From positions 5,615,469 through 5,679,468 of the forward strand of contig CAJINV010000005.1 in NCBI GenBank assembly GCA_905178155.1: a DNA stretch of 64,000 nt, in the 5' to 3' direction. The translations under genes and the position numbers were made by a program. Of this stretch, positions 2,892 to 64,000 are shown in pieces. Position 1 is the first letter of the stretch; each line of letters starts with the position of its first letter. The notes beneath the pieces are model-generated. The model saw only the letters and a program-made list of their open reading frames with translations, was not told the origin of the DNA and searched no databases. The stretch comes from Amoebophrya sp. A120. Lineage: Eukaryota > Protista > Dinoflagellata.

Positions 2892-3040
2892 TATGAATTG
2901 CAAAAGTATCGTACTCGTATAAATGCATTACAAATTTTCTCCGCATGAGAAATAAAATTTGTCATGCTGATTTATCTTAAGAAAAATATTTGTAATGCAG
3001 GAATTGCATTTGTACGAGTGCGATACTTTTGCACAGGATA
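2892..3040. mobile_element. Introner family A
   Basis: TAT..tgcaaaagtatcg TIR; direct repeat GAGTG/GAGTG. Confidence 0.9.
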
Positions 3041-3347
3041 GAGTGCTACTTTTGATGCGAGTATCAAGCAAGATTTTTCTACTTATTTTCGGTTGGACAC
3101 GGACAAGCTGTTGGGCGACCTTGTGATCATAGATCCGCCGAGCAGCTGCCACAAGAGCAGCGTCGTGAGCCTTACCCTGGTTGTCAAACCCGCACGCAGG
3201 CTCCCGCTGGCGGAGCTGTTAACGTCGCTGACGAAAAATGTTGTGGACGCGGATGTCCTGGTAGGCCGCGGGCTACTTGGGAAGTGGCTTGCCATGGTAG
3301 GAGAGGACGAGGTGGCGGGCAACGGTCCGCGATTTCGCGACTTCCCA

Positions 3348-3591
3348 TATGGCGTTCTCAAACGTTACATTCTCAACTGTTGACGCGATTTGTCATGCAA
3401 AAACGCTATCACTCTTCACACAATCAACAAGCCTTCTTCGCATGACAACTTCTCGACGCGCTGAATAGCAAGAGAATCCGCCCGAAATCTGTCATGCAAA
3501 AGGCGCAGTCTTCCTCGCTCCTTTCACTTTTTCGATTTTTGCATCACAAATTCGTGGAGCGCTTGAGAATGTGATAATTGAGAAGGCCATA
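3348..3591. mobile_element. Introner family J
   Basis: tatggcgttctcaa / ttgagaaggccata; TCCCA/TCCCA. Confidence 0.85.
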
Positions 3592-3669
3592 TCCCACACC
3601 CACTGGAAAGGGTTGGATCAGGTGGCCTGGTCGCGCTTTTGGAGGAGTTTCTGGATAGCCAGCTGGCCT

Positions 3670-3925
3670 TATCAAATGCAAATGTGTCTGGGTCTGGAAA
3701 CTTGTGGCGCTAGTTTGTGAATGGTGGGCGTGCTGCAAAAATACGCAGCCACGCATGACAGGTTTCTGCGCTCCTTTGTGTTTCGCTTTCCGCATGGCAA
3801 ACTGCACTTTTGCATGACAGGCAAGAGGATATTCTCCTGCTCACGCTTTACAGATTCAACTGTCATGTGATACAAGCATGACAGACCTTGCATCCCTCCA
3901 GACCCAGACACATTTGCATTTGATG
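3670..3925. mobile_element. Introner family B
   Basis: tatcaaatgcaaatgtgtctgggtctgga TIR, right end ATG; GGCCT/GGCCT. Confidence 0.9.
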
Positions 3926-3999: not shown

Positions 4000-4145
4000 T
4001 ATGCACTGCAAAAGTATCGTACTCGTATAAATGCATTACAAATTTTCTCAGCAAGAGAAATGAAATTTGTATATGCAAATTTACCTTAAGAAAAAGATTT
4101 GTAATGCATGACTGCAATACGAGTGCCATACTTTTGCACAGGATA
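4000..4145. mobile_element. Introner family A
   Basis: TIR; GACCT/GACCT. Confidence 0.9.
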
Positions 4146-4695
4146 GACCTACTCGTCCGACGATCTTGCTCCCCAAGTCAGTGCCAGTTCCTTCCACAAC
4201 CAAGTTTTACTCTGGAATCGAAACCTACCTCCGGGTTGGGCCGCATATACAGTCGAGTCCAAAGCAGGAGGTGGAAACTGGCGTATCCGATGCAAATATT
4301 TAGATTAGGGTCGGGAAAAAAATTAAAGTTTTCATGCTAGTACATGATCTGTAAATCGAAGTTTTTATCGAGAAAGATGTTAACTAGAGTACGTAGCGAG
4401 GAGCGACACATTCTTACGCGATCTCTACATCTCAGCGCGTGTTAATAGTGCGCAAATGAGTAGCGCTATTTTTGAGCTGCGCGAGGATGCGCGACACGAC
4501 AGTTCGGGATTGCTATTGGAGTTATCAGAGCTACAAGTTTTTCTACACGGCCCAGATCGATATTTGCGATTGATATGGCACAAAGTGGAGCGAGCATTTC
4601 GCGCAGCAATCATGAACAAGGTGAGCAGGGACGAAAACCATAGCTCCGGTGGCGGTCTACAGAACTGGCGCAAGCGGGTCCTAGTACGAAAACAC

Positions 4696-4922
4696 TATGG
4701 GAGTGCGCAGCTCCCCCTCCCCGTCATTTGTATAGCATGGGCGGCAATACAAGCGTCAGCAAGAGTGCCGGTTTGCGTGACAGATTTGCACAGCAGTGTA
4801 GTACTAACTGGGCTTTCGGAGTTTGTCACGCAAACAGTGCCAAGAGGCAGAGGCACAGCCTGGATTTGGTATTTTGCATGAAGACAAATGAGGGGGAGGG
4901 GGAGTTGTGCTGCACTGTCATA
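4696..4922. mobile_element. Introner family H (decayed region)
   Basis: tatgggagtgcgcagctccccctcccc / ggggagggggagttgtgc..cata; direct repeat degenerate. Confidence 0.75.
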
Positions 4923-6511: not shown

Positions 6512-6953
6512 TATGAGAGTGCACAACCCGAACTCCCGCCCGGGTCCGCCCCCTTTTATTTGTCATGTGAAATCCCAACTAATCCAGTGCCAAAAGTTAC
6601 TGCCTCGTAGCACTACGTGCGTGACAAATCGTAATTCCGGAAGCCCAAACAGTGCTACTACTACACCCAGTGCCTGAGCTTGTCATGCACAGGGTCCACG
6701 TGTGCTGGTGTTTGTATATATAATTCCTGCTTAATTCCTGCCAGTCCTTCTACCGCAGCCCCGAAGGGACATGGGTTGCGGAGTGACATCGGATGTCACA
6801 ACAAATGCGCTCGAGTGTACGTCCACTCAAGAGGAACGATGAGAAAAGACAGAATTCAAATGTCACGGACAAACACAAAGATGATGATGATGACTTATAC
6901 CAACACAACAGACAAATGAGGGGGAGGGGGACGAAAAAATGCGCGCTCTCATA
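6512..6953. mobile_element. Introner family H, enlarged and decayed
   Basis: tatgagagtgcac / gcgcgctctcata termini; interior about twice the usual length. Confidence 0.6.
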
Positions 6954-7467: not shown

Positions 7468-7697
7468 TATCAGAGTGCAAAACTGCTCCCCCTTCCCCTC
7501 TTTTGTATGGCATGAGCAGCAAACCAAGCGCCAGCACTCCTGGGGCTTGTGCGTGACAAGTCCACCGGCCGAAGGTAATGCGGTTTGGCTTTCCGAATAT
7601 ATTTGTCATGCATCATAGTGATACAAGGCAACAACTGGAGGATTTGGGTTTTTGCATGAGAAATGAGAACGCGGGGGAGTAGTTGTGCACTCTCATA
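7468..7697. mobile_element. Introner family H with 8-bp flanking direct repeat
   Basis: tatcagagtgcaaaactgctccccc / gggggagtagttgtgcactctcata; GAAGATCA on both sides. Confidence 0.8.
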
Positions 7698-9630: not shown

Positions 9631-12600
9631 ATGGATCAGCAAAACCGTAAGTTCGAAGACATCCAGAAGATGTTGGTGTGCCGCACCCATCTGGTATCCA
9701 CAGTAAATTTCCCGTACACTCGTACAAATGCTGTCCCTGCATGACAAAACTCGACTCCGGATTATGGTTTAGCATGACAAGTATCAGGCTGCAAATTGGT
9801 AAATTCTGTGATGCATTTTGTACAATGTACGGAAAATTTGTATTGCATAGCTGGGAACACTGAACGTGGACCACCGCATGAAGCGCTACGTCTTCCGCCG
9901 CACCCAGGACGGCATCCACTTTATGAGAGCCTCAGGTTGGAAATCCTCAAAGTGGAAATAATTTGTAATGCAAAAGAACGAATCCAGTTGAAGTGCCATT
10001 TCTAGTCGGCGCATGACAAATTTTCCGGGCACTCAAAGCATGTCTGTCATGCTAGACAGGCAAAGGGGTGCCCTTCTCTCGTGCTAATCAGCAGCCCAAT
10101 TATGAACCCCTAGCAGGACAATAGTCGGTCTCCATTGTGTCCTCTGCAATGCACTCATTTCTGCCTTGCATTTCATGCATCACAAATTATTTCCACTTTG
10201 AGGATTTCCATTCTGAGGCTTTCATACACTTGTTGGACCTGGGAAAAACCTGGGAGAAGGTGATGGTGGCGGCCCGCGTCATCGTCGCCATCGAGAACCC
10301 CGAGGACATCATGGTCATCTCCCAGCGTCCCTATGGTATAGGATTTTATTTGGGTTTTCTTTTTACTCGTAATAATACGCATTACAGGATTATTTTTCGT
10401 AGCAGAAATCGCATGACAAGTTCGAAGAGTTTAAAGAGAAAATGAATTTGTGATGCTAAACAAGGCAGGAAAAAGGACATTTGTAATGCCAAATCGCATA
10501 TAATAATACACAGGTTCCCGCGCGGTGTTGAAGTTCTCCCAGCACGTTGGCTCCGTTGCCCACCCCGGTCGCTGGACCCCGGGTACGCTGACGAACTACA
10601 TCACCAAAAAGTTCGCCGAGCCGCGTCTCCTGATCGTCACCGATCCGCGCACCGATTCCCAGGCTGTCTTGGAGGCTTCCTATGCCAACATCCCGGTATT
10701 TTGATGCTATAGAGATTTTTTTTTGGATTGGTTTGTTTTTCTTTCTCTGTGTAAGAAGAAGTATTGCATGACAGAGCGAGTGGCCGCTGAGTAGGGAAGA
10801 ATCTGTGCAAGAAGAGAAATTTAGAAGTCGGTGTAGTTGTATGCTGGTGCATTTGTATTGCTCGACATCAGCGTGAGGAGGCGGACAATAGCAGCGCACG
10901 CGTTATGATGATTGGATCACTTGGGACACCTTCTGAACCCCCGGGTCTACTTGTTGAATCCGGGGGTAATGTGAAAACTATTGTGACCGCCCCAGTCTGA
11001 TCTTGTGACGCTGATAAATTCTCGCGATCACAATTTCATGCGCGTGCTGTCATCTGCAGATTTAGATAATTCCTACTGCAAATACTCTTGTTTCAAAGCA
11101 TGTCTCCTTATCATGATGATTGGATCACTTGGGACACCTTCTGAACTAAGCTTTCGCAAGCAAGAAGTTTAGTAATGTGAACAACTACGTGACCGCCCCA
11201 GTCTGACTCTTCTAAAAGCACAATCTTTATTCCAACTCGATGTCAAAAAAGACGTGCTCGGTTATTTCATCATGACAAGCGTGGGCAGCAGCTCTCCTCT
11301 GTCTTGGTCTTTGAGTTTGACTTCTCTTGCCGCGTGACTACAACAGTAGTACCTAGGCGATCGCTACAACTTCCCGGTATGTCATACAGAGCTGCACTTC
11401 TGTGTCCAACACACAATATCATCTTTCCGTCAAAAACAACAAAACGGAAACACTGACTCTCCGCTGGAAAGACACGCTTGTGACACTGACTCTCCGCTGG
11501 AAGTCATCCTGACTGAACAGGAAAGACTGCTGAAACTGGAACAGGCCAGTTGGAACATGTCCGGAACAGGCCAGTCAGCGAACAGGCCAGTCAGCGAACA
11601 GGCCAGTCAGCGAACAGGAAAGACTGCTCATCCTGACTGAACAGGAAAGACTGTCTGTTCCAGTTCTCATCATGAAGTCACAGGAAAGACACTCTGTGTG
11701 GCGGAAGTCACAGTGACTGACTCACAGCCATCATCTGAAAAAGTGTTAACGTTAACGGTTTCCACAGATGGCAGTCATGCATTACAAGTCTTGCCTTCCA
11801 TGCATGCTACGCAATACAAATTTTATATCATCTTTCCGTCAAAAAAAAACAACAGGTCATCGCGCTGTGTGACACGGACTCCCCGCTGGAGCACATCGAC
11901 CTGGCCATTCCGTGCAACAACAAGGGTAAGGAATCCATCGCCCTCATCTTCTACCTCCTCGCCCGTGAGGTCTTGTACCTGCGTCGCGGCGCCCTGAACC
12001 GTGGACAGGAGTTATGAATTGCAAGAATGTCTGAGTCTGGAAGATTGCAACTTGTGATGCTGTCTCTGGATAATTCCAAAAAAGTCTGTATTGCATGACC
12101 AGCAAAAGGAGTCCAGTTTGTGCTACGCGGAGAGGGCATTTCTCATGCGGAATACGCACCAGAAAGCCATCTCAAAATCTGTGATGCTAGGCCATGCATT
12201 ACAGACGTAACGTGTCATGCAGAATATGCATGGGAAACCTGTCACTCTTCCAGACCCAGACATATTTGCACTTGATAGGAGTGGGACGTTATGGTGGACT
12301 CCTTCTTCTGGCGTGACCCGGATGAGATTGCCGAGAAGGAAGAGGAGACGACCAAGTGGTATAGCTAGAATTGCATTACAAATCTTTTTCGTAAGGTAGA
12401 TCCGCATTACAAATTTCATAGCCGTTTGTAATCTCGGTTTTGAGTCCTGTTAGCATTCAATCTGTCATATGTCCTGGTGCACGAGTTCTTCACACTGGTC
12501 TGAGTTGTCTTGTTTGTTTCTGTCAAGAACAAATGCGTGAAGATCAAGATAAACAGTCGTCAACATGATCAAAACTACCCAAACTACAGGCAAGAGGAGA

Positions 12601-12731
12601 CCGCCGCTCAGGGCCAATTCGGTGACAACTTCCAGGCGCAGACTGGAGGAAACTGGGATGACAACTGGGAAACCACCAACGCCAACCAGGATGGTGACTG
12701 GGGTGCGACCAACACCGCCGAGGGCTGGTAA
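9631..12731 (+). CDS. RPSA: 40S ribosomal protein SA (uS2); 7 exons, 3 introner introns and 3 GT-AG introns (10336-10513, 10696-11855, 12359-12589)
   Basis: Spliced translation [141 protein letters not shown], with an acidic Trp-repeat tail; hallmark uS2 motifs. Confidence 0.97.
9695..9849. mobile_element. Introner family C (RPSA intron 1)
   Basis: tatccacagtaaatttcccgtaca / tgtacggaaaatttgtattgcata; TCTGG/GCTGG. Confidence 0.9.
9922..10226. mobile_element. Introner family F (RPSA intron 2)
   Basis: Long (~45 bp) TIR; CACTT/CACTT. Confidence 0.92.
10905..11000 (+). ncRNA. Intronic box C/D snoRNA (snR67/SNORD31-like), copy 1
   Basis: Box C ATGATGA, D' CTGA, D CTGA; guide ACCGCCCCAGT is complementary to the LSU rRNA P-loop ACUGGGGCGGU; second guide CTTGGGACACCT is complementary to LSU AGGUGUCCYAAG. 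Confidence 0.88.
11113..11206 (+). ncRNA. Intronic box C/D snoRNA (snR67/SNORD31-like), copy 2
   Basis: Boxes and both guides identical to copy 1; different internal hairpin. Confidence 0.88.
11360..11700 (+). repeat. Degenerate copies of RPSA exon junction sequence and GAACAGGCCAGTCAGC microrepeats inside intron 4
   Basis: atatcatctttccgtcaaaaacaac and acactgactctccgctgga (x2) mirror 11825-11890; 16-mer repeated three times at ~11563-11612. Confidence 0.75.
12013..12277. mobile_element. Introner family B (RPSA intron 5)
   Basis: TIR; GGAGT/GGAGT. Confidence 0.92.
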
Positions 12732-13978: not shown

Positions 13979-16900
13979 ATGTCCTCTTCCACAGCAACTG
14001 CGAACGGTAAGGCGAAAGCCGCTGCTGCTGCCGTACCCGCTTTACCGAAAGCAACCACTAGTATGAAACGGGAAAAGGGCAAGGAATCGCCGGGAGCAAA
14101 ACGCACGAAGAAGGACGGTGGAAATAGCGGGTCTCCCGCTGTCCACTCGCCCTCCCGCAGGAACAGTAAGAACAGCAGCGCCCCCGCAGTGGAACAAGAG
14201 GACCCGCAGCGTGGTGCGCAGGCGTTGCCAGGAGCAGCGGCTGCTGCAAAAGGAACCACTACATCGGGTTCGTTTACCCTTCCACCAGCAGCAGCAGATC
14301 CTGCGAAGCAAGCTGCCAACCCTGCTTCAGGAGCGAATATAGCGCCACCTACAGTTGTGGCAGGAGCACCGTTTACTTCTCTGTCCGCGAATTGTACTCC
14401 CGGAAAAGGAGCTGCTTCGTTAGTTACAACAACTTCCACGACGAATCACCACGCCCCCACTTCCACTTCTACACCCGCAGCTGCGATCAACACTGCCGCG
14501 TCCGTATCCCTTCCCACCCATGCGACCACGTTTGTAAAACCAGTAAAACCGCTTTCCCTCTCCGCAAAGGAATTTGACGCGGTGAAGCGCGCGCAGGAAC
14601 AGCTACGGAAACTGGAAGACCAGACGGTATCGGACCAAGTGATTATTCAAAACAGCTTTGAGGATTTGAAACAGCCGTTTTTTCAGGAACGGAATATCCT
14701 GTGCAAAAGTATCGTACTCATATTGCAGTCATGCATTACAAATTTTTATTGTTTAGTCAAATCCGCATTACAATTTACAAATTTTATTTCTCATGCTGAG
14801 GAAATTTGTAATGCATTTATACGAGTCCGATACTTTTGCAGTTCATACGGAATCAATTATTGCAATTCTTCCCGAAATTCTGGGGCAACGTCGTGTTGCG
14901 CATCTTCGATCCGCAATGGAGAGGGCTGGCTGCGACGGCGAAGAGTAGAGAGGGAAATACTGTTCCACTGTCGGCTCGGAGCGGCAGCGGCGGGCCGAGT
15001 AGAAGGGGGCAGAGCAATAGTAAGAGTTCCAACGCGAGTGGTAAGAGACCGGGAGCAGTGGGTGCAGCACCTCCTCCTGCACGGGCGCCTGCGGGAAGTA
15101 GGACCACTACCAGTGCTGGTGGAGCGGCCACGCCAAACACGACGGGAAGTACCACAGCCACTGCTGGTAACACGCTTTCTCGCAGTTTAGGCACTATGGT
15201 GGGACCAGGTGGAGGGACGAATACAACCGGAAGTGCTGCAGCTCCGGGGCGTAGCATGTTTAGCTTTGCTTTCTCCAATTTGTTTGGCTTCACGATCATG
15301 ACAGAGGACGCGAACAACAACATCGCGTCTGGTGGGTCGAACATGAATGCGAATACGGCTAGTACTGGGTCCGGAACTGGGGACCACGGAGGAGCAACTA
15401 CAACTACCGCAGCATCCACCTCTTCCCATGCGGGCACAGTTGGTGGATCCTCCAACACAAGAACTACCCCAAGTGCGGTTGCAGCAGCAGTTTCCACGAC
15501 AGCGGCCGCACCACGGCCGGCTGATTTCGACGAATTTTTCCCGCCGATTATCCCGGATGAAGACGACAATTTTATCATGGAAGATGACATTCTAGGCGAG
15601 CATCAATCTGCACCTGCTGCGACTAGATCTACTTCCTTTGTCGGAGAAAATCAAAACGAACTCTCCGAACTCCTAGACGTTCACCTGCAGGACAATTTAG
15701 ACGCCTTCGGCTCGCACCGATTTTCATTTGCGTTTTCGTCGCAGTTGCTGCGGCGGGCGGGGACGGCGAAAAGTAGTAGTGGAGGTGGTGGAGCTCCACA
15801 TATTGGTGTAGTCTCCTCGTCAACATCTGCCAGTGCTGGTGCCACGGGAAACAAGCGGTCGCCAAGTAAAGAGCGCGGCGCGGGGACGGATGCGGTTGTA
15901 AATGGAGCAAAAAGTAGTGCTGCTTCGGCTGCAGCTTCGAAAACAGCAGGAGGGAAGCCGACCTCTTCGTCATCCGGTATAATTTCAAACTGTTTCTTTC
16001 GCGTGACTAAACGTGTGAACTGCGCCCAGGGCGTGGTAAAAGTGGAGGTGAAAAAGATTGCGCTGCCGGGAAGTGGTAATTCTGGAGGAGGACATCAAAC
16101 TGATCCGACTGGCAAGAAGAAAAACAAAGCCAGTAGTACCGCTGGAAATTCAACTCGCGCGGCGACCACAAGTGGTACTAGCGCAACATCTAGTACGACA
16201 GCTGTTCCACCCTTGACCAGCAGCAATGCCCCCCCGACGACTTCAGGAGCTTTGCATCAAAATAACCAAACCACAAGAAACCAGCAACCCGCCATTCCCA
16301 CCCCCGGGATTTTTACGTATCCTGAGGAAAAACGTACCCATACCAGAGTTGTAATGCAGATTTGCAAAGACAGGAAGACTTGTAATGCGCATTCGCATGA
16401 GAGCCATTTTCAGTCGTGTTTTGGAATTTGTGATGCTGTGAACAGGATGAGCAGATGGGTTTCTGATGCAGCTGGCCTTGCGAACCTGCACTACACTACG
16501 GACTGCAACTTGTGATGCGTGACTCACAAAGCTCCTAGGTTTGTGTTGCAAAATCCCCATCCTGACTCTGGTGCGGGTACGTTTTTACTCAGGATATCAC
16601 GTCCTTGGTCAACGCCATTCGCACAACGTCCAACTCGACCAACGCGACACCAACGGGCACGCCGAACCCCAGCCCGGGCAGAAACCGACCTGCTGGTGGT
16701 GCAACTTCCGTTGCGAGCAGAATGGCACGGATGGTCAGAGGGGTCGGAGGTACAAATGGGCAGCAGAATAATTCTTCCTCTCCGCACGCGCACATTCTGA
16801 CCGCGGCGGAATTGAGTAGTCCCACCTTGATACAACAATTTTTCACGAGTAGATTGAAGGAGAGGTTGGAAAAGGCGCAGGAGAAGGCGGAGATGGGTCG

Positions 16901-21900: not shown

Positions 21901-22428
21901 TCGGGATGGGCGGAAATTTTTCCAATATACCGCTAATCGACGCAAGTATCCGGGAGGTGGATTTGGTGGGGGTTTTTCGGTACCGCTACACCTACTCGAC
22001 GTGCATTCAAATGCTCGCGGAGAAAAAGATCGACGTGTCGAAGCTGATCACGCACAAATTTCTATCACAGGAAAAAAAAATTAACGGTAACGGAATTTGC
22101 GATGCAGCAATGCATCGCAAAGCGTAAGTACCCAAATTTGTCATGCCTAGCCTGCGTGCTAGCTTGTTTTTGTGATGCACTACTGCAATCTCTAACCTTC
22201 TTTCTTGTGATAATTTCCATTCAGTCAGGAGGGCGTGGAAAACGCGATGGAGCATTGTAGTATCCAGGGAAAAACACCCTTCCACATCCAATTTGTCATG
22301 CAAAACATAAGTACATAAAGTCCTGCGCTTGTCATGCAAAAAATGGATGCTGGAACTGGATGGGTTTTTTTCTGTGGATATGTAGGACGGGGAAGGACGG
22401 GTGTGTGAAAGCGATGTTGGAGTTGTGA
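18947..22428 (+). CDS. SORD: Zn-dependent sorbitol/xylitol (L-iditol) dehydrogenase, MDR family; 9 introners and one GT-AG intron (20779-21410)
   Basis: Spliced motifs [43 protein letters not shown]...[48 protein letters not shown]. Confidence 0.95.
19061..19214. mobile_element. Introner family C
   Basis: TIR; ACAAA/ACAAA. Confidence 0.9.
19278..19392. mobile_element. Introner family E
   Basis: tatccaggaaaaattacccatccccatcc TIR; CGGGT/CGGGT. Confidence 0.92.
19473..19695. mobile_element. Introner family H
   Basis: TIR; CGAGT/CGAGT. Confidence 0.92.
19754..19904. mobile_element. Introner family A
   Basis: TIR; CTGGC/CTGCC. Confidence 0.9.
20062..20374. mobile_element. Introner family F
   Basis: TIR; AACCT/AACCT. 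Confidence 0.9.
20422..20622. mobile_element. Introner (singleton family in this window)
   Basis: tatccaagaaaaaaacgttg / caatcttttttcctgggata; GACGG/GACGG. Confidence 0.88.
21546..21714. mobile_element. Old introner with decayed direct repeat
   Basis: tatgaaggtgaaaaatg / cactttttcgccttccata; ACGAG/CCCCC; element + 5 nt removal still restores frame. Confidence 0.78.
22063..22212. mobile_element. Introner family D (absent from duplicate exon)
   Basis: TIR; ATTTC/ATTTC; empty site near 24155. Confidence 0.93.
22261..22380. mobile_element. Introner family E (absent from duplicate exon)
   Basis: TIR; TGTAG/TGTAG; empty site near 24200. Confidence 0.93.
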
Positions 22429-23812: not shown

Positions 23813-24245
23813 CCCCCAAGACCGACTTGCCACGCACTTCATCGGTAATGGCGCCACCGCTCGGGATTCCTCCACGGAGGCAATGGAGAAATTCAACCAC
23901 GGCCAGCTCTACGACTGCGCCATCGACTGCTGTGGCGTGGCAAGTGCGATTAGCTGCGCGATCCACAGCACAAAACCGGGAAAAAGGGTGGTTTTGGTCG
24001 GGATGGGCGGGAACATGTCGAACATACCCTTGATCGACGCAAGTATCCGGGAGGTGGATCTGGTGGGCGTTTTCCGGTACCGCTACACCTACGCGACGTG
24101 CATTCAAATGCTCGCGGAGAAAAAAATCGACGTGTCAAAGCTGATCACGCACAAGTTTCCGTTCAGTCAGGAGGGCGTGGAAAACGCGATGGAGCATTGT
24201 AGGACGGGGAAGGACGGGTGTGTGAAGGCGATGTTGGAGTTGTGA
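23813..24245 (+). CDS. Duplicated, intact, intron-free C-terminal exon of the sorbitol dehydrogenase (partial gene or alternative exon)
   Basis: [58 protein letters not shown]; mostly synonymous differences from copy 1. Confidence 0.7.
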
Positions 24246-52700: not shown

Positions 52701-55700
52701 CTGTGCGACATGCTGGTCCTGCGCGGTTTAAAATACGATGAGCAGAAGCCAATGACTCGAGCACCAGTGAGCTTGAACTATTTCGGCGGGTTCTGTGATT
52801 TGAAGAAGAACTACAAAAACGTGGGTAGTAGTACAACAGCCTCCTCTTCTATCGTACAAAAAAAGTGTTTCACTGTAAGGATCTTACAGGTTTTGCATCA
52901 CAAGTTTGTTCTACATGACCGAGAAAATTTGCCATGCGAGGTTCCTAAAGGGAAAACACAGCGAAAAATCCACAGTCTTGCATGTGTAGCAAGACAAACG
53001 CTTGCGAGATACACTTTCTGCATTACAAGTTTACAGTGAAACAGTTTTTTCTGGGGATATCTTCATCTTCTGGTCAACGACTTTCCACCACCCCGACTTC
53101 CGCTGCGGCTGCTATGGAGTTCTCAAACGTTACACTCTCAACTGTTACATGCATTTGTCATGCAAAGTTGCCAACAGCCTCCACTTGATGAAGGTGCTTT
53201 AGCATGACAAATTTTCGAAGGGCTAAGCAGCATGGTAATCTGTGGCAAAAAATCTGTGATGCGAAATATGCTGCAACGTTGCCACTTTTACTGTTGCTGT
53301 TCTTGCATTATGTAACGTTTGAGAACGCTATAGGTGCTATGTGGCAGAGGACCCCGAGTCTCGGCAGTCAGCACCCGGGGGGATTGCTGCCGAACGAGAC
53401 AATGTATGAAATGCAAATAGGTCTGGGTCTGGAAGAATGCGACATTTGTCATGCTAGTCTGGAATGACTCTGCACTCTGTATTGCGTGGCCACCAAGCGG
53501 CCCGCTTGCCTTTCATGCGAATAAAGCGCAGTTTCTCATGCGAAATACGCATCACAGAAGCACGAAAAGAGTTGTCATGCTTGGCGGCGCAGTACAGAGC
53601 ACTCTATTGTTCACGGAGTTGCATCACAAGTTTCCAGACCGCCAGACATTTTTGCGATTGAGACAATGCAGCTGCAGTTTGACACGTTAGTCAAGGAAGT
53701 ACTGGACGAGGTAGAAACCATATCGCAAGAAAAAACTGTTTCGCTGTAAATTTGTAATGCAGAAACTGTATCTGAGAAGTGTTTGTCTTGCTATACATGC
53801 AAGACACTAGATTTTTAGCTGTGTTTTCCCCTAGGAATCTCGCATGGAAAAGTTTCTCTGTGATGTAGAACAAACTTGTTTTGCAAAATAACTTACAGTG
53901 AAACACTTTTTTCGTACGATAAACCACGTCGTCAAAGGCCCCCGCCATTGTAACCGGGAAGAAGATGTCCTCGCCATCGAAACGCCCGCCGAGCGACAAC
54001 AAGAAGGGCACGACTAGCAAAGAAGATGAACCAGAAACGGCGATGAAAGTAGACGAGACCTTGGATGAAAAGCAGAAAGTCCTCGCTTTGTTCAAACAAA
54101 AACAGCAGAAAATCAAATCTCTCCCGAAGATCTACTCCACCATCAGCCCTTTCTCCCCGTATTTCCAGCTTCTCCAAGTGCCCTACGGGTGGCATTTGCG
54201 GTACTCCCGCTCCAGCAATCGGTCCTACTACGAGCACGCAACCTTCAAGCAAGAGAAAATCCAGAATTGGCAAAAGCGTGAGAAGCCGCAACTATTGGCA
54301 AAACTGGAAGAAGAGAAGAAGAAGCTCACTGAGGATGTCGCCTCGAAGAGGCAGCAAGCAAGAGTCGAGCACTACAAGAATGCGTTAAAAGCGCAGCATC
54401 CGGACAAGATGCGATTTCACTCTTGGACGGAATTGTACAAAACACCCATTGGGTGGCAAGCGAGAATTCCTTCTGACGTGTGGAAAAACGAAATGAGTTT
54501 CAAGAAGATGCCAGATTCGGTGGAGTTTGGTAGGTTGCAGAAACTGGAAAACCAGAAGAAACCGGACCAGAGGAAACTACTCGATCCGGAGGACACGATA
54601 TGCATCGCAAAAGTTTATCGTATTAGTGGATTAATTGCATTACAAATTAGCTTAGCATGACTGATGTAATTTGTCATGCTGTTTTAGCTGAGAAATGCTG
54701 AACTGCAATTAGTACACGAGTGCGATACTTTTGCAGTGGATACACGAAGTCGCGGTACGACGTGTACTTTGAGAACTCGTTTTTGGACAAGAGGTTCACC
54801 ACCGGCGGCAGTACAGATATCACAAGAAAAAGTGTTAACGTTAACGGAATTTGTGATGCAGTGATGCATCAGAAAAGGTGCGCAAATTTGTATTGCATAG
54901 CATGCATGGAAGGCAAAACTTGTAATGCATGACTGCCAACTGTGGAAAGCCTAATGTTAACATTTTTTTTGTTTGATAACAGGCAGTGGCGCTTCCTCCT
55001 CCGCGGCGAAAACGACGAATAGCACGGTTATTCCGACTGACATGCAGGAGTTGCTGAGAGCGACGGACACCTTTGACAACCGGAACTTTTTCAGCTTGAA
55101 AAACTCGACGATCAAACAGAACACTTCGCTATCCTGTGTGAGAAAAACGTCCCAACCCCGAAGTTGTCATGCAGATTTGCGATTACAGGAACATTTGTCG
55201 TGCGCATCTCCATGAAATGCATTTCAGATCGTGTTCTAAAATTTGTAATGCTGTAAACAGGATGACTGAATTGCTTTGTCATGCAGCTTCCCTTGCTGAC
55301 CACACTACGCTGCAGATGGAAAGAACTTGTCATGCGCAACTCCCAAAACTTGGAGACTTGTCTAGCAGACTTGACTATGGGGTCCTCGTGGGGACGTTTT
55401 TACTCAGGACATTCCCTCTCCTCCGTGGACCTTCTCGCCGTGAAACTGCAAAAAGACGAGATTTCCGAAGAGGCCGTGGCGAATTATCTGAAACAGGAGG
55501 CAAATCGGTTTTACACGGCGAACGTGACGGACTGGAATTTGCCGTTTAAATCCGCAGACCAGTCGACCAGGGATTGGTTGGTCAGTCAAAACGGGATTTT
55601 TCTAGTGAGAAAGTTCGGCCACGAGAGGAGTATCAAGGATTTTACCAGTCCGGAGTTGGCGAAAGTGGATATGGACGACTGGAGACACGAAAAACGGGAA

Positions 55701-58451
55701 CAACCAGAGACTCTCGCTATCAAAGTGAAAAAAAAACCCTCCCCCTATCGAAACGAAGTTTCTGATGCTGGATTTGCGAACACAAATCAGATTTGTCTTG
55801 CTGGAGAGGACTACAGACGCATAGTAATCCGGAGCAGAGCGGCTTTGGCATAGGCACTTAGCATGAAGAACGTCCGCACTGCAGGCCCAACAGCATGACA
55901 AAACGCCTGCAAAATGCGGCGGAGACTGTGGAGCTGCCTTCTTGCAAGACAGACGCGATCTGTGGCCACAAATCAGCAACGCAAATTGTCGAAGACGTGA
56001 CCACGCGTCAATATGTGTATGGGGAGGGGGGATTTTTCCGTGTGATACTCGTGGACGACGCGGCTGTTGAGGACGTGTTTGCTGCGCTGGATGGGAATAA
56101 CGCCGGGTATTTTCATGGGGCAGGACGAACAATGTATGGCGAGGAAGTAGACCAAGGATGGTCACTGGAGCGGGAGCTTTTTGAACAGCAGCAGGAGATA
56201 AATAACGAAAATGGAGGCGGACCTCCTCCGCAGTTGTTCTACAACGAATCTGTACTGCAATTTCAGCAGCAAGTGCAACAGCAAATTCAGGAGTACCAGT
56301 TGCAATCTCCGAATTTTGATGTCAAAGAGGACGAGGACCAGCAGCAGCATCGTGATTTCTCACAACCGCAGGCGCACCAGCAACAAGCGCATCAACTGGA
56401 GGGCGCGCATCAGCATCTTCAGGAGCAATACGGGTGGTGGAGCTCGCCGGAGGAACAGCAGCGTGTCGGGTGGAATAATATTACCGCTACATCGCCCTGT
56501 TCTTGTGAAGGAAACCAAAACACTTTGTTCAATGACAGTCTGCGTCTGTCCCGGTTGCAGAGGAGCTCGGAGGACTTGTTATCCACCGGGAAAAAACACC
56601 CATCCCCATCCAATTTGTCATGCACAACATGTGTATCAGTTCAACAGGGCCCGCGGTTCAACAATGTACCTACCAGTTCAATACCGCCCCGGGGCCTAAA
56701 TATCCTAGAACAAGCAGGCCATTTGATATGCTCGGCGCCAAAAACATATGCAGGTGGAGGAAGGAGTAGGGGGGGCGTTCCTGACCCAAAGGTACGCTCC
56801 TGATCTCAGTGGTACTTAGTCGACCCGGGGGGCCAGGTATTACCTGACCCCCGGTTCGGGTCTGTGCCTGCAATGCTGCAGCGAAGTCGTTTTAGATGGT
56901 GCTGCAGCACAGCTGCGCGCACCTTGATGGGCGCCAAAGGCCCCAAGTCTGTCGCTACAGAAAACGGTAGCCATGACTGCGATCGGCCCTAGTGTTCGAC
57001 CGCTTTCTGTTTGAAACCAGCGCCGCGCACACAGCTTCGGTCTTCGTGCGCCCATTGATCGGAAGCAGCGTCCCTAAATCCTACGGCCGGCAGCCGTGCC
57101 ACCGTAAACAATAGTCGCGCAGCGCTTCGCGCCTCACAAACCAAAATCGCGCGCGCGCGCGCCAAAATACAGGACCTTTTGGGGCTTGTTGCGTGCACAT
57201 TCTTTTTGCGACATATGGCGCCCGCAAGATATGCTCTGTAGCTCATCGGGATTCTTTTCTCCCGTTGCCCGCTCTTTTTTTCGGGGTTTGGCACGTGCAC
57301 TACGTATGGTTCTCTTCTTTTTCGTATGCCCGGAACCTTCACGAACTAAGTAGTTCGTGAACTGGGGTACACTCTCGAACCGATTCACATGCATAAAATC
57401 CGCTAGTTGTCATGCAAAAAATGGATGGGGATGGGTGTAGAAGTCTTTTCCTAGATACTTATCTGAGGAAGAACATTTAGAAGACCGCCTGAACGACTTA
57501 CTCCCGTACAGCTTCTACGGAGGGGATAGGATGAAGGACAACGGTACAACTACTAGGGGCGAACAGCAGGAGACGAACCAGCGAGCTTCAAAAATATTGC
57601 CAGACGAGCCGCGACATCATCAACATCATGACGCGGTGGAGGAACCTGTTCCGTTTAATAGCGAAGGATCCTTTTTGCTGCCTCTGGAAGTAGGAGAGAC
57701 GCAGAGAATCAACGCGGAGACTACACCAGGAGGCACCGCTCGTCGTGCCAGCGAGGATCATCCTCTCCTAGAAGAGCACCAACAGGACGAGGACGAGGAC
57801 GAGTATGACGAAGCGGCGGAGGCCCGGGAGCTCGCTAAGGAATTGGAAAACGGTCTCGGCGCTCTGGTGTTGGAATCGCCAGAATTGCTGGTCTCGTTGG
57901 CAGAGAGCTTGGAGAAGGAGGAGCAGGAAAAAATGAAAAAGGAGAAGGAGGAGGCTGAAGCTCAAGCTGCAAAAGTAGTAGAGGACAAAGAAAATATTAT
58001 CCCCACAACTAGTACAACTGGTGGCCGTGCACCAGCTGCACAAACGAGAAGTTGTCCAGGGGCGCGGCGTCCTAGTTCTCGCGATAAAAAAGCAGCAGAA
58101 GACGACTACGATTTTGAAGCAGAATTGCAGTCTCCCACGGATGTGACCGCGAAGAACCAGCAGGATACGACGGTAAATAACACTTCTGCAGGACGAGCGG
58201 CGTCAAGCGCCAAGGATCAACAGCAGAGTAAATATCTCAAACTGCCACTGGAGGAGCCAGACGAAGCGGGTGATGATGATGTCGAAGATGATCACGATTT
58301 GGATGACCACTGGGATCTTCTTCGCGGGGAGGACGATGACGATCATTGGGATGGATTGAACTCGCCCGGGGCCGCTGGGGATAATTCAGAGGCTCCTGAG
58401 CACAAGAACATCAATAAGCGAAAACTACTACACAAGCGAAAGCTTGTATGA
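40752..58451 (+). CDS. Giant hypothetical protein (~3300 aa), 33 exons separated only by introners; KGKG-rich N-terminus and a WW-like motif
   Basis: Hand-traced continuous frame across 32 introners; VPYGWHLRYSRSSNRSYYEH (~54178-54237) resembles a WW domain. Confidence 0.8.
42307..42489. mobile_element. Introner family C (inverted orientation)
   Basis: TIR; CATGA/CATGG. Confidence 0.88.
42558..42709. mobile_element. Introner family A
   Basis: TIR; CAGCA/TAGCA. Confidence 0.88.
43093..43354. mobile_element. Introner family B
   Basis: TIR; CCCGC/CCCAC. Confidence 0.9.
43420..43571. mobile_element. Introner family A
   Basis: TIR; CGTCT/CGTCT. Confidence 0.9.
43688..43991. mobile_element. Introner family G
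   Basis: TIR; CCGGA/CCGGA. Confidence 0.88.
44027..44308. mobile_element. Introner family B
   Basis: TIR; GAAGG/GAAAG. Confidence 0.88.
44393..44572. mobile_element. Introner family C (diverged)
   Basis: TIR; GCCGG/TCTGA. Confidence 0.8.
44757..45033. mobile_element. Introner family B
   Basis: TIR; GTTTT/ATTTT. Confidence 0.88.
45952..46259. mobile_element. Introner family F
   Basis: tatggaagcgtcaggttt / aaacctgacgcttccata; AACAC/AACAC. Confidence 0.93.
46295..46445. mobile_element. Introner family C
   Basis: TIR; CAGCA/TAGCA. Confidence 0.92.
46591..46757. mobile_element. Introner family A
   Basis: TIR; GTTAT/GCTAT. Confidence 0.88.
47072..47323. mobile_element. Introner family B
   Basis: TIR; GCAGG/GCAGG. 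Confidence 0.92.
47355..47629. mobile_element. Introner family B
   Basis: TIR; AAGGT/AAGGT. Confidence 0.9.
48041..48321. mobile_element. Introner family B
   Basis: TIR, right end ATG; CCGGA/CCAGA. Confidence 0.88.
49317..49468. mobile_element. Introner family A
   Basis: TIR; AATCC/AATCC. Confidence 0.92.
49532..49706. mobile_element. Introner family C (inverted orientation)
   Basis: TIR; GCGAG/GCGAG. Confidence 0.88.
49765..49913. mobile_element. Introner family A
   Basis: TIR; GCTGG/TCTGT. Confidence 0.88.
50028..50301. mobile_element. Introner family B
   Basis: TIR; GTGAA/GTGAA. Confidence 0.9.
50498..50662. mobile_element. Introner family D
   Basis: tatcacaggaaaaagtgtta TIR; GACTC/GACTC. 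Confidence 0.92.
51076..51237. mobile_element. Introner family D
   Basis: TIR; TACGT/TACGC. Confidence 0.9.
51825..51985. mobile_element. Introner family D
   Basis: TIR; GTGGA/GTGGA. Confidence 0.92.
52113..52375. mobile_element. Introner family B
   Basis: TIR; ATTTC/ATTTC. Confidence 0.92.
52559..52681. mobile_element. Introner family E-like
   Basis: tattccctgaaa / tttcagggaata; TCAGC/TCAGC. Confidence 0.88.
52850..53059. mobile_element. Introner family I
   Basis: TIR; TCTTC/TCTTC. Confidence 0.88.
53113..53332. mobile_element. Introner family J
   Basis: tatggagttctcaaacgttaca / tgtaacgtttgagaacgctata; GCTGC/GGTGC. Confidence 0.88.
53405..53663. mobile_element. Introner family B
   Basis: TIR, right end AGA; CAATG/CAATG. 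Confidence 0.85.
53721..53921. mobile_element. Introner family I
   Basis: TIR; AACCA/AACCA. Confidence 0.9.
54599..54742. mobile_element. Introner family A
   Basis: TIR; CACGA/CACGA. Confidence 0.88.
54818..54978. mobile_element. Introner family D
   Basis: TIR; ACAGA/ACAGG. Confidence 0.9.
55130..55411. mobile_element. Introner family G
   Basis: TIR, right end ACA; TTCGC/TTCCC. Confidence 0.85.
55718..56047. mobile_element. Introner (singleton family in this window)
   Basis: tatcaaagtgaaaaaaaaaccctcccc / ggggagggggatttttccgtgtgata; CTCGC/CTCGT. Confidence 0.85.
56580..57457. mobile_element. Introner family E carrying a nested insertion
   Basis: cacccatccccatcc / ggatggggatgggtg TIR core; CTTGT/CTTAT. 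Confidence 0.88.
56632..57387. mobile_element. 756-bp non-autonomous TG..CA element nested in an introner
   Basis: Termini TGTATCAGTTC / GAACCGATTCA (9 of 11 inverted match), CATG duplicated on both sides; empty family E copies read aaaaCATGcataa. Confidence 0.75.
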
Positions 58452-59293: not shown

Positions 59294-62200
59294 ATGCGCG
59301 GTTGTGACGATCCAGCATCCGTCGCTGCTGGTCTCAACGTCGTTTCTTTCACCTACAATTGCGGTGGCGTGGAGCCCCCGCAGGAGGAAAATTTAAAGCA
59401 GAAGCTACAGGAAGAGATTCGGGAAAATCTGCTCCAGCAGAGGATTGATTGCAGTCGCAACAGTGATGGAAATGATCTTGTTGATTTTGCTGGTGCGCCT
59501 GCGGCCCATTCTGCTTATATTACCGTCGAACAACAAGCCGCAAATCCATCCACAACTGGAGGCACAACGAGGAGCGCTGGTGACCACAGTGTGTGCTTTA
59601 CCCCGGACATCGTTGTGATCAATCTGCAAGAATGTTGCCCGCTAGCCCTGGCCGCTTTAGGCAACAACGCTTCGGACTCCTACGGAAACAAATGGCGAGA
59701 CGTTTTCATTGAGGCTCTGGGCTACGGGCCATTAGACCGATTGACCTGCAGGTTTTACACCCAGTTGCACGGCGGGAAGGGAGCTTCAGGAACCGACGTT
59801 GCACCTGCGCAAGAGCTCGATATAGAGGAAAAATGCGAAAATTCCGCCGGTGATCAACATGTTGTATCGAGTTGTTCTAGGGCTCATGTCGCGTCCTCGT
59901 CCTCGTCTGCGAGCGCCGTTGCGGCTGCTAGTGACGTAGCTTGTTCCAAAAAGTGCTCCTCAAAATCGTCAGTAAGCACAGCGGCCTCGTCTTCTTCTAG
60001 TTTTGTTTCTACGGCAAGCAGCACTGGTGATTGGAAACAACTCGCAGCTTCCGCTTCGAGCTCTTCCAGGCTAGAAAGGGAAAGACAAATATGCTCATCG
60101 CCGGATAGCAATTGCAGTTCAAATTCGAGCGCCTCGACATCATCGAGTAGCGCTTCATCCTCTTCGACATCTTCCCCGTGTTGGACTACGACGGAGCAAA
60201 TCAGCCCCGCACCTAGAGCCAGTCCACCCGACGAGAGAAGGGATGAAATAAGCCCGAAGGATCCACCAGTGTCGCCGTCGCCCGACGCATTAGTGAACGA
60301 GAAAGGCCGCCGCGATCTGTTCTTCCCACCGGCCTTATCAACATCGGGAGGGGAAGATGTAAATAAACACGCACCACAAATCGCATCAAACGGAGCGGAA
60401 GACGAGACAGTTACGACAAACAGTTGTGGTTCATCTAGCAGCTGCTTCAGCGCTTCAGCGTTATCTTCAACCGCAGTGACGCCAGGGAATTCCAGTTCGA
60501 ATTCCTCTTGTTCTAGCTTTCTCCCGCCCGGCGGCGCAGGTATGGTAGTGTCAGGATCGAAATCGACAAAGTTGAAACATCAATTTGCGATGCATAAAAT
60601 GCAATCCACAGAATGCCTGTCTTGCAGAGTAGGCAAGGTAGGCAGATTGTAAGCCTGATGAGGGGTAGAACTAGAAACTGAGCTGCTAAAGTAGCATGAC
60701 AAAAGGGGTCTTCCTTACCCAAACAGCATGACAAACTGGATTTCGGTTCTACCCAAGTTTGTCATGCACCACTTAGAAACTGGGTTACAACTGGCATCCA
60801 TTTTATGCATGACAAACCATTAACGACTTCAATCCTGGCACTTCCATAGCAGGCAGTCGCTTTTTACAAGTTCCTCAAGCCGGGGGTGCGAAGGTGCGCA
60901 GTGCGGGAGGTCGTGCAGTTGTTGGGCAGCTGACCGCCGAGTCTTCCTCTGCGAGGACAGGCAGCATGACAACAGGAGGTGGAGGCTTTGGGTCCCGCCG
61001 GGCAACCGCGATCACTACGAATAAGATGCAGAAAAATTATAACCGCCGGCCGACACAGCTACCGGAAGAGCTGCAGGGCGGGTCGTTTGGAAGTACTTCT
61101 AGCTGCGCTCAGACTCAGACGCCTGCTGCAGAGGGCAAACAGGACGAAATAATAATAAAAGAAGTTCTTGCAAAAGTTGGTAAAAAATCCCGACGACGGC
61201 GCGGCACAGAGAGCAGTAGCACTGGGGGCTCCTTCATCGACCTTGCTGACTACGAAGACGCAGCCTGTCGCTCTCCCTCGTCACACAGTTGCCAGCAGAA
61301 CTTCTCATGCGAAACGCCGAAAGTAGTAAAGGTGAACAAGCAAGGTGGTAAAGCAGGCCCCAGCTGCTCAGGCGGTAGAATCGACGACGACCACTTTTCA
61401 ACATCCGAAACAACATCCGACTATCCAGGAAAATGAAACACCCATCCACATCCGATTTGTCATGCGAAACACGTATCAAAAAAAGAAAATTTCTGAAGAT
61501 AATGCTGTGTTTGTCATGCAAAAAATCGATGCTGGGGTTGGATTTTTTTTCCGTCAATACCAACAGTAGCCTCGCTGCGGATGTGGAGCACAGTCCAAGG
61601 TGCACCGTTTTGTATCACAGGTAAAAGTGTTAACGTTAAACGCTTTTCACCGATAATTGCAGTCATGCATCACAAATGTAGCCCAATGCGCATGTTATGC
61701 ATGACAAATTTTGGCACGTTTAGTGATGCATTGCTGCATCGCAAATTCCGTTAACGTCAAGAACACTTTTTCCTGTGATATTTTGAGCGCGACGGCAAGA
61801 AATTCCATAAGCAAGGCCATCAGACGGGAGGAGAGGAAGAATAAATCATCACTCCTGCTGCATCAAAAGACCACTAGCACACGGACAAAATTCAGTGGTT
61901 CGTCATCATCCACGACCGCCGCCCACACCGGGGAATGTTATCACTCCTTGGCGTTCGCCCCTATGTCGCAGCAGGTGACGACGCCTCCGAAACTAGGCTC
62001 CATCTCGTCCAAAACCGGACTTTTGCAGCCGCCCGCGCTGCTGAAAGTAGGAGCAGCTCATCCGGGAGGAGGTGCAGGCAATGCAAGTGCTTCGCCTTCG
62101 CATTCTCCTCTCAAGCACATGATCCACCAGTCACGACGCTGCCTGAGCCCCGGTCGGGTAGGACAGGAAAGTTCTCTGAACACATTGCCAAGCACGTGTA

Positions 62201-64000
62201 GCTATCCTGTGCAGAAGTATCGTACTCGTGGTAATTGCAGATATGCATCACAAATTTTTTTCTCAAGGTAAATCAGCATTACAAATTTCATTTCTCATTC
62301 TCATGCTGAGGAAATTTGTAATGCATTTATACGAGTGCGATACTTTTGCAGTTCATAGCACCACCTTCTCGACGTCCTCTTCCTCCAAAAAACTTGCAAA
62401 AGTCGCTTCCTCCCCTGGGCCGCTGCGGAGTTGTGCGGGCGGCCGGAAAAATTATATACAGCCGAAGACGTCGGGGTCAGCGCACACCAACAGCAGTGGG
62501 ACGACGAGTGTTGCCGGCCGCGGTCCTGGGGCAGCTGTTCTTTCAGCTGATGTGCGGAGCAAACAGAAGAACGTGGCTTTTTCAACAGCAGGAGCGACGG
62601 GCGGAGCACATCATCAAAACGACGCGGCGGTAATACCTTTGCAGGTCTCGTCAGAAGGTGTATTGGATTGCTCACCCAACTACGCTACCAAGGACCCGGA
62701 ACAAGTTCCTCCTCCTGCGCATCAAGCTGATAAAAAGCACATGACCGAACAACAGGAAGAATCAAACAGCAGCCACCAGCCCTTGATAAACAACATGAAC
62801 AAACCCCACTTACGACTGATCAAATCACACCGCATGGTGGGTTTGTTCACCCTCGTTTTCATCAACACGAAAAAAATCCCGACCTCTGCCATCCACTCTT
62901 GCACGAGTTGCCAACATAAATTAGGCTTCTTCAACGGCTTACTGGGGAACAAAGGGGCCATTTGCGTCCGCTTGACGCTGCAGATGCCCGGAGTGGTACG
63001 GACACAAGTATTAAGACCGCTCCGCCTCGCGTTTTTCAGTTTCCATCTCCACGCCGGGGAAGTATCCAGGAAAAAACACCCATCCCCATCCAATTTGTCA
63101 TGCAAAACATGCATAATTTGCAGCGTTTTTCATTTTCATGCAAAAAATGGATGCGGATGGTTTTTTCTTCTCGATAGGATGGCTTGAACGCGTATAAACA
63201 GAGGCTGAACGGCTTGAAAGAGGTGTTCGGGGACAAGAGTTGTATCTCCACTACCCAGGAGGGAGGCGAAGAACACGCCGAAGAGTCGCTGGTGCTCAAC
63301 CGAGCGTCTGTGACGTCAGCGTCGGGCAGGACTGTAGGTAGAAGTTCTGGTGTGGTCCAGCAAGGGGCACCAGGGAGCTCAAACAACGGCGAGGGTACTC
63401 AAACAACTGGCAATCCGTTGTTTGAATACGAGCGGTCATGTGACTATCGCAGGAAAAAGCGTTAACGTTAACGGATGAATTTTTTGTATATGCAAACACG
63501 CATGCCTATGCGTGCCATTGTCATTGCCGGAAAAAATGGAACTTGTATTCGCCATTTTTGCGTAGCATGTAATGTAGTAGAGAAAATGAAAATCATCATG
63601 TCATGTCCTTTAGGCTGAAGACCGTTAATAGCGTTAGCACTTTTCTGTTTGATACTGACTTCGCGTTTTTCAGTGGGGATTTCAATTTCCGCTGTATGCC
63701 GGTTAATCAAGATTATTTGCTGCAGGAGGATCATAATTTTGAAGGAGAAGGACATCTTGAAGGGCACCAGGAGCACGTGCACGCAAGCGGCCCGGGGAGC
63801 GAAATTCACCATGCTAGTAAAAACCTCCACCAGGTAGATCTTCAGGAAGAGGCCCTTTGCGGCTCCGCCGGTAATTTTTGCTGCTCGAACACCAGTAATT
63901 GCTGCTCCGAAAGCACGTTATCAAAGGAGACGGTAAGTGACTTCTGTGCGGTAGGCGGAGCTGGAGGTGGAGCCGCAACGACCTCAAGTTCTATCACAGG
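59294..64000 (+). CDS. Inositol polyphosphate 5-phosphatase (IPPc), 3'-partial, with long Ser-rich insertions; 6 complete introners and one starting at 63992
   Basis: Spliced motifs SFTYNCGG, PDIVVINLQE, SHRMVGLFTLVF, GNKGAICVRL, FFSFHLHAG, DFAFFSGDFNFR. Confidence 0.92.
60541..60848. mobile_element. Introner family F
   Basis: TIR; GCAGG/GCAGG. Confidence 0.9.
61422..61559. mobile_element. Introner family E
   Basis: Diverged TIR; CCGAC/CCAAC. Confidence 0.82.
61613..61780. mobile_element. Introner family D
   Basis: TIR; TTTTG/TTTTG. Confidence 0.9.
62203..62357. mobile_element. Introner family A
   Basis: TIR; GTAGC/GCACC. Confidence 0.88.
63063..63176. mobile_element. Introner family E
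   Basis: TIR; GGAAG/GGATG. Confidence 0.88.
63445..63654. mobile_element. Introner family D-like
   Basis: TIR; GTGAC/CTGAC; removal yields CDFAFFSGDFNFR. Confidence 0.88.

Follow-up and report, generated by a model that had tools for sequence, protein, structure and literature searches.

Genes in a 64,000-nucleotide stretch of the Amoebophrya sp. A120 genome (contig CAJINV010000005.1; "the window" denotes the whole stretch analyzed) are interrupted by short, non-coding, inverted-repeat elements that begin with TAT, mostly end with ATA, and, at all five junctions listed from RNA data, leave the transcript together with exactly five additional nucleotides (element length plus 5, or L+5). We put the chances at about even that they are removed by a dedicated pathway that recognizes the element ends, cuts and joins, and operates beside the GT-AG spliceosome. 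Such a route is favored because the letters at the junctions are random, element orientation is irrelevant, and a legal AG is passed over in a gene that uses AG for its other introns. The class has been published before for strain A120, with TAT starts, 5-bp repeats, a comparison to miniature inverted-repeat transposable elements (MITEs), and an unknown machinery all in print; the window is thus a clean example rather than a discovery. Added here are a tighter rule set and named sites that bear on how these introns are cut.

Curation of the window yielded 62 intragenic TAT…ATA elements (114 to 878 nt; median, 201 nt; named here by their first position), one more than the 61 complete elements of the initial annotation, with partial or decayed copies besides (Table 1). 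As that annotation had described, every left end read TAT (62/62) and the right end read ATA in 58, with ATG in 2 and AGA and ACA in 1 each. The five-base flanking repeat, perfect or decayed, matched at 5/5 positions in 37 elements, 4/5 in 21 (together 58/62), 3/5 in 2, and no more than 2/5 in 2 (44393 and 21546). In a blind scan of TAT..ATA pairs with a chance control, a perfect 5-nt repeat flanked 22/56 strong pairs (terminal complementarity of 13 to 16 of 16) versus 11/6,753 weak pairs. The elements formed 17 similarity clusters, 9 of them multi-copy, and carried A at terminal positions 11 to 13 in 52 to 57 of the 62 at each end. All host genes lay on the + strand. Excising the element plus 5 nt left the frame open in 61/61 elements tested, as had been claimed, and keeping the element broke it in 60/61; 44393, modeled as a GT-AG intron, stood outside this test, and its element+5 reading, made by hand, is also open. 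Since excision of +2 or +8 likewise keeps the frame in 60/61, the frame alone cannot fix the excised length; the RNA does. Most elements indeed lacked a usable GT/AG, an exact GT-AG intron reading being possible for only 3/62 (47072, 47355, and 60541). Intergenic DNA (~19.7 kb) held two or three decayed copies versus ~44 expected at coding density; outside coding sequence there was hardly any intact element, and nesting in the interiors of others was rare, a pattern that either targeting or purging could produce.

Removal from RNA was examined across positions 9000-24500 (14 elements) by comparison with two raw RNA runs, a set of contigs presumed to derive from RNA (X1), and a DNA-like set (X6). 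X1 also skips the three GT-AG introns of RPSA and so behaves as RNA. Junctions were listed for five elements, the nine SORD junctions falling outside the listing, and 5/5 skipped L+5: 160 nt at 9695, 310 nt at 9922, and 270 nt at 12013 in the table of joints, and 158 nt at 14695 and 284 nt at 16318 in RNA contig pieces. At 12013, raw run X11 supplied 105 joined reads with 21 different starts, the positions listed within the element were without reads, and the RNA contig showed the same 270-nt skip. At 9695, an in-frame GT-AG pair (L+2) was present yet unused in RNA, although the ordinary introns of the same gene use GT-AG. Exact removal from RNA without GT-AG, as originally proposed, is therefore borne out at these sites; transcripts that retain an element or join at nearby GT-AG pairs, sought as counterevidence, did not appear among the listed RNA junctions of the elements, all of which were L+5. 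The annotation's alternative of removal from DNA fared worse: in X6, depth was 0 at three listed element joints and contigs of single-copy depth passed from exon into element, so that the elements are kept in this one DNA-like data set. Raw RNA run X10 held more than 500 reads carrying the right end of family E (window 10168-10226) on other flanks, so that some family E copies elsewhere stay in an abundant RNA; these reads match only the element end, at 90-95% identity, belong to another locus or strain, and were not used as junction evidence.

The elements are MITE-like: they have terminal inverted repeats, are short, non-coding, and multi-copy, and are flanked by a target-site duplication for which empty sites exist. 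A paralog of the 3' part of SORD, 92% identical, lacks 22063 and 22261, the gaps being 155 and 125 nt, or L+5 exactly; two empty sites with one 5-mer each identify the repeat as a target-site duplication. Scanning metagenomes with one family's end pattern returned at least 147 stretches and supplied 139 loci for analysis, in which that family is over-represented as a result of the selection. These loci carried the same families at 68-94% identity; 56/62 window elements had such copies, and the longest metagenome matches to the window were matches to elements. A repeat-blind detector recovered 428 distinct elements from them, with the repeat matching at 5/5 in 307 and 4/5 in 73; identity was ~0.89 within the five repeat positions versus ~0.22 outside, and lengths of 2-4 and 6-8 did not fit. 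Together with the empty sites, this bears out the proposed origin from MITE-like DNA transposons. A second pass added 58 elements (486 in total), and strand and frame were clear for 329 of them; adding 60 elements from the window made a set of 389, including 369 with at most two repeat mismatches. Among 278 perfect repeats, the target 5-mer was indistinguishable from phase-matched coding background, with no base, AG, or GT enriched at any register, and co-option of splice sites from the duplication was rejected on that ground. The end pattern had 0 matches in viral contigs, and Rfam gave 0 matches.

All families shared the consensus TAT[CG]NNNNG[C]AAAA at both ends, and an internal motif, TTGTNATGC, recurred from family to family. 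Elements cover 13.6 of the 64 kb yet contained 166/186 window matches to TGTVATGC or its complement; a relaxed form of the motif was present in 382/389 elements, and the motif was more conserved than other interior columns in 8/8 families. Same-direction motif pairs 31-33 bp apart occurred in 45-79% of copies in 6/11 families versus 4-12% at random, with a smaller excess in two families and none in three. This spacing, equal to three helical turns, suggests DNA binding, and the families may share ancestry. Both orientations relative to transcription were found in 7/9 multi-copy window families, and the largest family was split 72:63 in the larger element set. Only 3/1,893 alignment columns depended on orientation at a P value of <0.01. 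The internal motif was rejected as a branch point, since it showed no orientation-dependent loss and only 2/38 motif tests reached a P value of <0.05.

Four sites bound the position of the cut within the repeat. In RNA, the retained base comes from the left copy at repeat base 1 of 9695 and at base 2 of 16318; in 46295, base 1 of the right copy would create a stop codon, so the left base is kept, and in 51076, base 5 of the left copy would create one, so the right copy must supply that base. A fixed cut would therefore have to lie after repeat base 2, 3, or 4.

The dedicated pathway can be pictured as a sequence of steps. A DDE/integrase-type transposase would cut the target with a 5-nt stagger and no sequence preference, the TAT[CG]NNNNG[C]AAAA ends and the internal motif, often paired, being its predicted binding sites. 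The transcript then loses the element plus 5 nt, as seen at five junctions, which restores the pre-insertion sequence. The ends would be brought together by pairing and a bound factor, with the cuts set by distance from TAT and ATA irrespective of the letters there; since each end mirrors the other, an element would work whichever way it lies. Copies with decayed ends may fall back on G|TAT...AG splicing. For the removal step itself, a nuclease-ligase route like that of Euglena stands at roughly even chances. An unlikely variant is a third splicing chemistry, in which a co-opted transposon end-binding factor bridges the ends and rejoins the exons, blind to letters and without the spliceosome; if it were true, the join point would possibly float within the 5-mer, and an insertion anywhere in coding sequence, whichever way it faced, would be a perfect intron.

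Several observations weigh against a dedicated end-recognizing pathway. The initial annotation called removal structure guided, which stands only in part: a terminal stem was predicted in ~68% of 59 window elements, leaving about a third without one, and terminal positions 4-8 paired in 57% of cells versus >90% for positions 1-3 and 9-14. The RNA-confirmed RPSA element 9695 is among those with no predicted stem (mean pair probability, 0.16; fold z = 0.15), and the hairpin alone does not explain removal. The transcribed strand was more stably folded than its complement (204 versus 152 elements), and the arms showed an excess of G-U over A-C (150 versus 105 elements); this excess came from C>T only (84 versus 50, with A>G at 80 versus T>C at 78), so that strand-biased mutation is as good an explanation as selection. 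Two families lean toward one orientation (35:58 and 7:0), only 5/14 elements of the compared region have a listed junction, and no excised product, whether lariat, circle, or linear, was seen; the 15 joints listed (682 more exist) included no back-joint of a circular excised RNA. Nor did searches of Pfam, PHROGs, PDB, and 1.84 billion representatives match a transposase in the long copies (457-1,188 nt). Features of the 5' end, which fit a spliceosome too, and the repeat mismatches, both described below, also belong on this side. As a separate observation, terminal position 21 of the largest family showed U-G versus C-A at the mirrored pair in a 25:1 ratio on the transcribed strand, which points either to a marked mutation hotspot tied to the strand or to selection on this single position.

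A re-targeted major spliceosome is a possible but doubtful explanation: N|TAT[CG] would act as a donor whose first base is free (placing the cut after base 4, within the bounds above), an end-binding factor would replace U1 and AG scanning, and a lariat would be formed. N|TAT[CG] does resemble a splice donor, and the 5' TAT is tighter than the 3' ATA, deviating in 3/369 versus 15/369 elements (two-sided binomial P value of ~0.008). Four of the five GT-AG introns modeled in the window start with G|TAT, and according to the consulted parts of PMC7789003, A120 has U2, U4, U5, and U6 but U1 was not found; the non-canonical introns of Fritillaria are likewise spliceosomal in the consulted parts of PMC11282704. 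Speaking against it are the lack of AG or GT enrichment at any register, the skipping of the adjacent AG at 9695, and the near absence of orientation-dependent interior columns, which leaves no visible branch signal. G at position -1 was found in 7/20 poor-repeat elements versus 108/369 others, which is not significant, several of the 20 being mis-paired.

Quite unlikely, in our view, is a repeat-guided floating crossover, for example by an RNA polymerase jump over the extruded element or homology-guided rejoining, in which both repeat copies would reach protein. It draws on the repeat mismatches, which were synonymous in 53/105 cases versus 0.29 by chance and versus a ceiling for one free copy of 0.44 at omega 0 (P = 0.10) and 0.40 at omega 0.2 (P = 0.013), an excess which suggests that the cut is not fixed. 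Metagenome mismatches alone gave 44/80 synonymous (P = 0.028 even at omega 0), and the SORD paralog pair, with 23 synonymous and 9 non-synonymous changes, places omega at roughly 0.13. Against this, the window alone (9/25) showed no excess and fits one free copy; the stop codons demand the left copy at base 1 in one site and the right copy at base 5 in the other, a combination that rules out any jump in which the entire left copy is always retained; and 21546 has no repeat, yet L+5 opens its frame. By eye, homolog residues placed none of the non-synonymous mismatches at a clearly conserved position, and the weak/strong base direction of the mismatches was inconsistent between positions. Excision from DNA in a life stage, comparable to the internal eliminated sequences of ciliates, would account for the precise loss with one repeat copy left and for the transposon-like ends; given the exon-to-element contigs and zero joint depth in X6, a single sample, we consider it very improbable. 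Reverse-transcriptase template switching is barely credible. A hairpin between direct repeats is its classic setting, but retention would break the frame in 60/61 elements, RPSA included, no retained raw read was seen at 12013, and the weakly folding 9695 is skipped too.

Turning to relics of the elements, the four GT-AG introns that start with G|TAT hold element remnants, the fifth starting with GTAAGT, and it appears that copies in decay persist in the form of G|TAT…AG introns. The GT-AG introns within 10336-12589 and at 20779-21410 have A/C-rich tracts ahead of their terminal CAG, and the three in RPSA show little of a polypyrimidine tract. The long TAT..ATA elements encoding a transposase that the annotation had suggested seeking did not emerge among the long copies of the window and metagenome loci, nor did a Gypsy-integrase-like DDE transposase among the loci examined. 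Two candidates were rejected, P0002 as a further copy of the same cargo, lacking a Pfam match, and P0003 as a repetitive chance match. Two elements of different families (L030:6184-6998 and L014:5427-5883) share a 190-nt cargo at 98% identity, and L009:505-1608 and L051:8358-9505 share another at 87%; neither cargo had a protein family match.

As for the host genes, the nearest match of the SORD product was a eukprot protein (50% identical), for one exon of the large gene at 40752-58451, proteins of 528-2,000 aa included no relative, and no annotated host proteins were found when sought as a proxy for junctions. A tandem duplication (23640-25300) comprises the SORD 3' part and downstream DNA, is preceded by a fragment like the start of the next gene, and retains the right end of the old element 21546 without the two younger elements. 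Elsewhere, window positions 1-1850 hold several GC-rich tandem repeat arrays and are possibly subtelomeric, and a non-coding segment of ~450 nt is duplicated (by eye) at 30690-31180 and 31890-32340, between GC-rich stretches.

Table 1. Elements, introns, and host genes in the window (letters denote element families, followed by orientation; fractions give matching bases of the flanking repeat).
Feature	Position	Strand	Remarks
Element	2892..3040		B (+); 5/5
Element	3348..3591		I; 5/5
Element	3670..3925		A (+); right end ATG; 5/5
Element	4000..4145		B (+); 5/5
Element	4284..4575		Singleton; 4/5
Element	9695..9849		C (+); in RPSA THLG; 4/5
Element	9922..10226		E (+); in RPSA
GT-AG intron	10336..10513	+	Starts G|TAT; end and motif remnants; likely decayed element
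GT-AG intron	10696..11855	+	Starts G|TAT; element fragment inside at 11737-11824
Element	12013..12277		A (-); in RPSA
GT-AG intron	12359..12589	+	Starts G|TAT; left part element-like
Element	14695..14847		B (-)
Element	16318..16596		G (+); 4/5
Element	19061..19214		C (+); in SORD; 5/5
Element	19278..19392		F; in SORD GICGSD; 5/5
Element	19473..19695		In SORD GHE; 5/5
Element	19754..19904		B (+); 4/5
Element	20062..20374		E (-); 5/5
Element	20422..20622		5/5
Ordinary GTAAGT...CAG intron, SORD	20779..21410	+	Predicted from frame
Old element	21546..21714		Repeat lost (1/5); L+5 opens frame, its GT-AG pair does not
Element	22063..22212		D (+); missing from paralog
Element	22261..22380		F; missing from paralog
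SORD 3' paralog	23798..24253	+	~92% identical; lacks 22063 and 22261 (empty sites)
Element	25649..25902		A (-); 5/5
Element	26754..26903		B (+); 5/5
Element	29337..29592		A (-); 5/5
Element	38136..38398		A (+); 5/5
Element	38680..38900		H (+); 5/5
Element	42307..42489		C (-); 4/5
Element	42558..42709		B (-); 4/5
Element	43093..43354		A (+); 4/5
Element	43420..43571		B (+); 5/5
Element	43688..43991		G (-); 5/5
Element	44027..44308		A (+); 4/5
Element	44393..44572		C (+); 2/5; readable as GT-AG intron 44392-44579 (L+8)
Element	44757..45033		A (-); 4/5
Element	45952..46259		E (+); 5/5
Element	46295..46445		C (+)
Element	46591..46757		B (+); 4/5
Element	47072..47323		A (-); exact GT-AG reading possible
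Element	47355..47629		A (+); exact GT-AG reading possible
Element	48041..48321		A (-); right end ATG; mismatch at repeat base 3
Element	49317..49468		B (+); 5/5
Element	49532..49706		C (-); 5/5
Element	49765..49913		B (-); 3/5
Element	50028..50301		A (+); 5/5
Element	50498..50662		D (-); 5/5
Element	51076..51237		D (-)
Element	51825..51985		D (+); 5/5
Element	52113..52375		A (-); 5/5
Element	52559..52681		Singleton; 5/5
Element	52850..53059		H (-); 5/5
Element	53113..53332		I; 4/5
Element	53405..53663		A (-); right end AGA; 5/5
Element	53721..53921		H (+); 5/5
Element	54599..54742		B (+); 5/5
Element	54818..54978		D (+); 4/5
Element	55130..55411		G (+); right end ACA; 4/5
Element	55718..56047		4/5
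878-nt element	56580..57457		Family-F-like ends, unrelated interior; 4/5; longest stop-free stretch 118 aa
Element	60541..60848		E (-); exact GT-AG reading possible
Element	61422..61559		F; mismatch at repeat base 3
Element	61613..61780		D (-); 5/5
Element	62203..62357		B (-); mismatches at repeat bases 2 and 4
Element	63063..63176		F; 4/5; in 5-phosphatase
Element	63445..63654		Singleton; 4/5
Right half of family E element	2074..2173		Outside the 62
Element, decayed repeat	4696..4922		Near end of first gene; outside the 62
Decayed intergenic copy	7468..7697		3/5; similar copy at 6512-6953
RPSA host gene	9631..12730	+	Pfam Ribosomal_S2 below cut-off, on one exon; spliced, 263 aa
Sorbitol-dehydrogenase-like host gene (SORD)	18947..22428	+	ADH_zinc_N; spliced, 402 aa
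Large host gene, ~3,330 aa	40752..58451	+	32 elements; weak WW match
5-phosphatase-like host gene	59294..64000	+	Exo_endo_phos2

The initial annotation rightly held that inverted-repeat, non-canonical introners of Amoebophrya are not new. In its consulted parts, the report of Farhat et al. 2021 (PMC7789003) describes A120 inverted repeats that start with TAT, followed by seven looser bases and an A run, with direct repeats of 3-5 nt (5 bp in the legend of Fig. S19); it counts 29,850 repeated introns in A120, notes non-canonical junctions, draws the comparison to MITEs, and gives the splicing machinery and border position as unknown. The consulted parts of Gozashti et al. 2025 (PMC12130899) label the A120 family fam38 (~810 bp) 'Ginger; 5-bp TSD, TA/TA Termini' (TSD, target-site duplication), class many A120 families of 100-330 bp as terminal-inverted-repeat DNA transposons of unknown superfamily, give automated duplication calls of 2 to 6, and label families as splice-site co-opting or carrying. 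Among literature titles and abstract openings, no paper was found that treats the excised product, or a subterminal motif, in Amoebophrya; figures, supplement rows, and subscription papers could hold such. The window offers junctions with mismatched repeats, a site without a repeat, an ignored legal GT-AG pair, and a common motif that could serve as bait for a transposase or splicing factor. A mismatch falls at repeat base 3 in 48041 and 61422 and at base 4 in 19754, 62203, and 63063. Should the route prove non-spliceosomal, it would join Euglena as a second such case and account for the ability of transposons to fill coding sequence without cost to the protein.

Compared with the A120 introner elements as described in the consulted parts of PMC7789003, the window elements are alike in their inverted repeats with TAT and an A run, their direct repeats, their removal from RNA without GT-AG, and their repeated families; the present analysis goes beyond those parts in a repeat length of exactly 5 with empty sites, a cut bounded to repeat bases 2-4, the demonstration of both orientations, and a common internal motif with 31-33 bp spacing. 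In contrast to the families of PMC12130899, as far as consulted, the duplication here is 5 throughout, there is no co-option, and the long copies examined have no integrase homology. Nor do the elements have the donor and acceptor of U2-type GT-AG introns, given 3/62 exact readings, no enrichment, and the ignored pair at 9695. Ginger2/Tdd elements (PMC2836005, in part) are similar in having terminal inverted repeats, and TDD-4 and TDD-5 make 5-bp duplications; Ginger termini, however, are TGTNR, whereas 366/369 transcript 5' ends here read TAT[CG], and Ginger2 prefers RTATAY targets, whereas no target preference was seen here. The GT-AG introners of other algae and dinoflagellates (PMC9860276, in part) are likewise transposons turned introns and enriched in genes, but they bring splice sites with them or obtain these from the duplication, unlike the elements here, with 3/62 exact GT-AG readings and both orientations. 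The nonconventional introns of Euglena, as portrayed in the consulted parts of PMC12501133 and PMC11282704, share paired ends, a proposed MITE-like origin, and GT-AG introns alongside. Their cut sites are set by spacer length from the terminal stem; the total spacer here is always 5. Their motif, N3-CDG ... CH'G-N5-6|R, differs from the TAT/ATA ends seen here; circular products have been shown for them; and the window elements belong to young multi-copy families with intact duplication.

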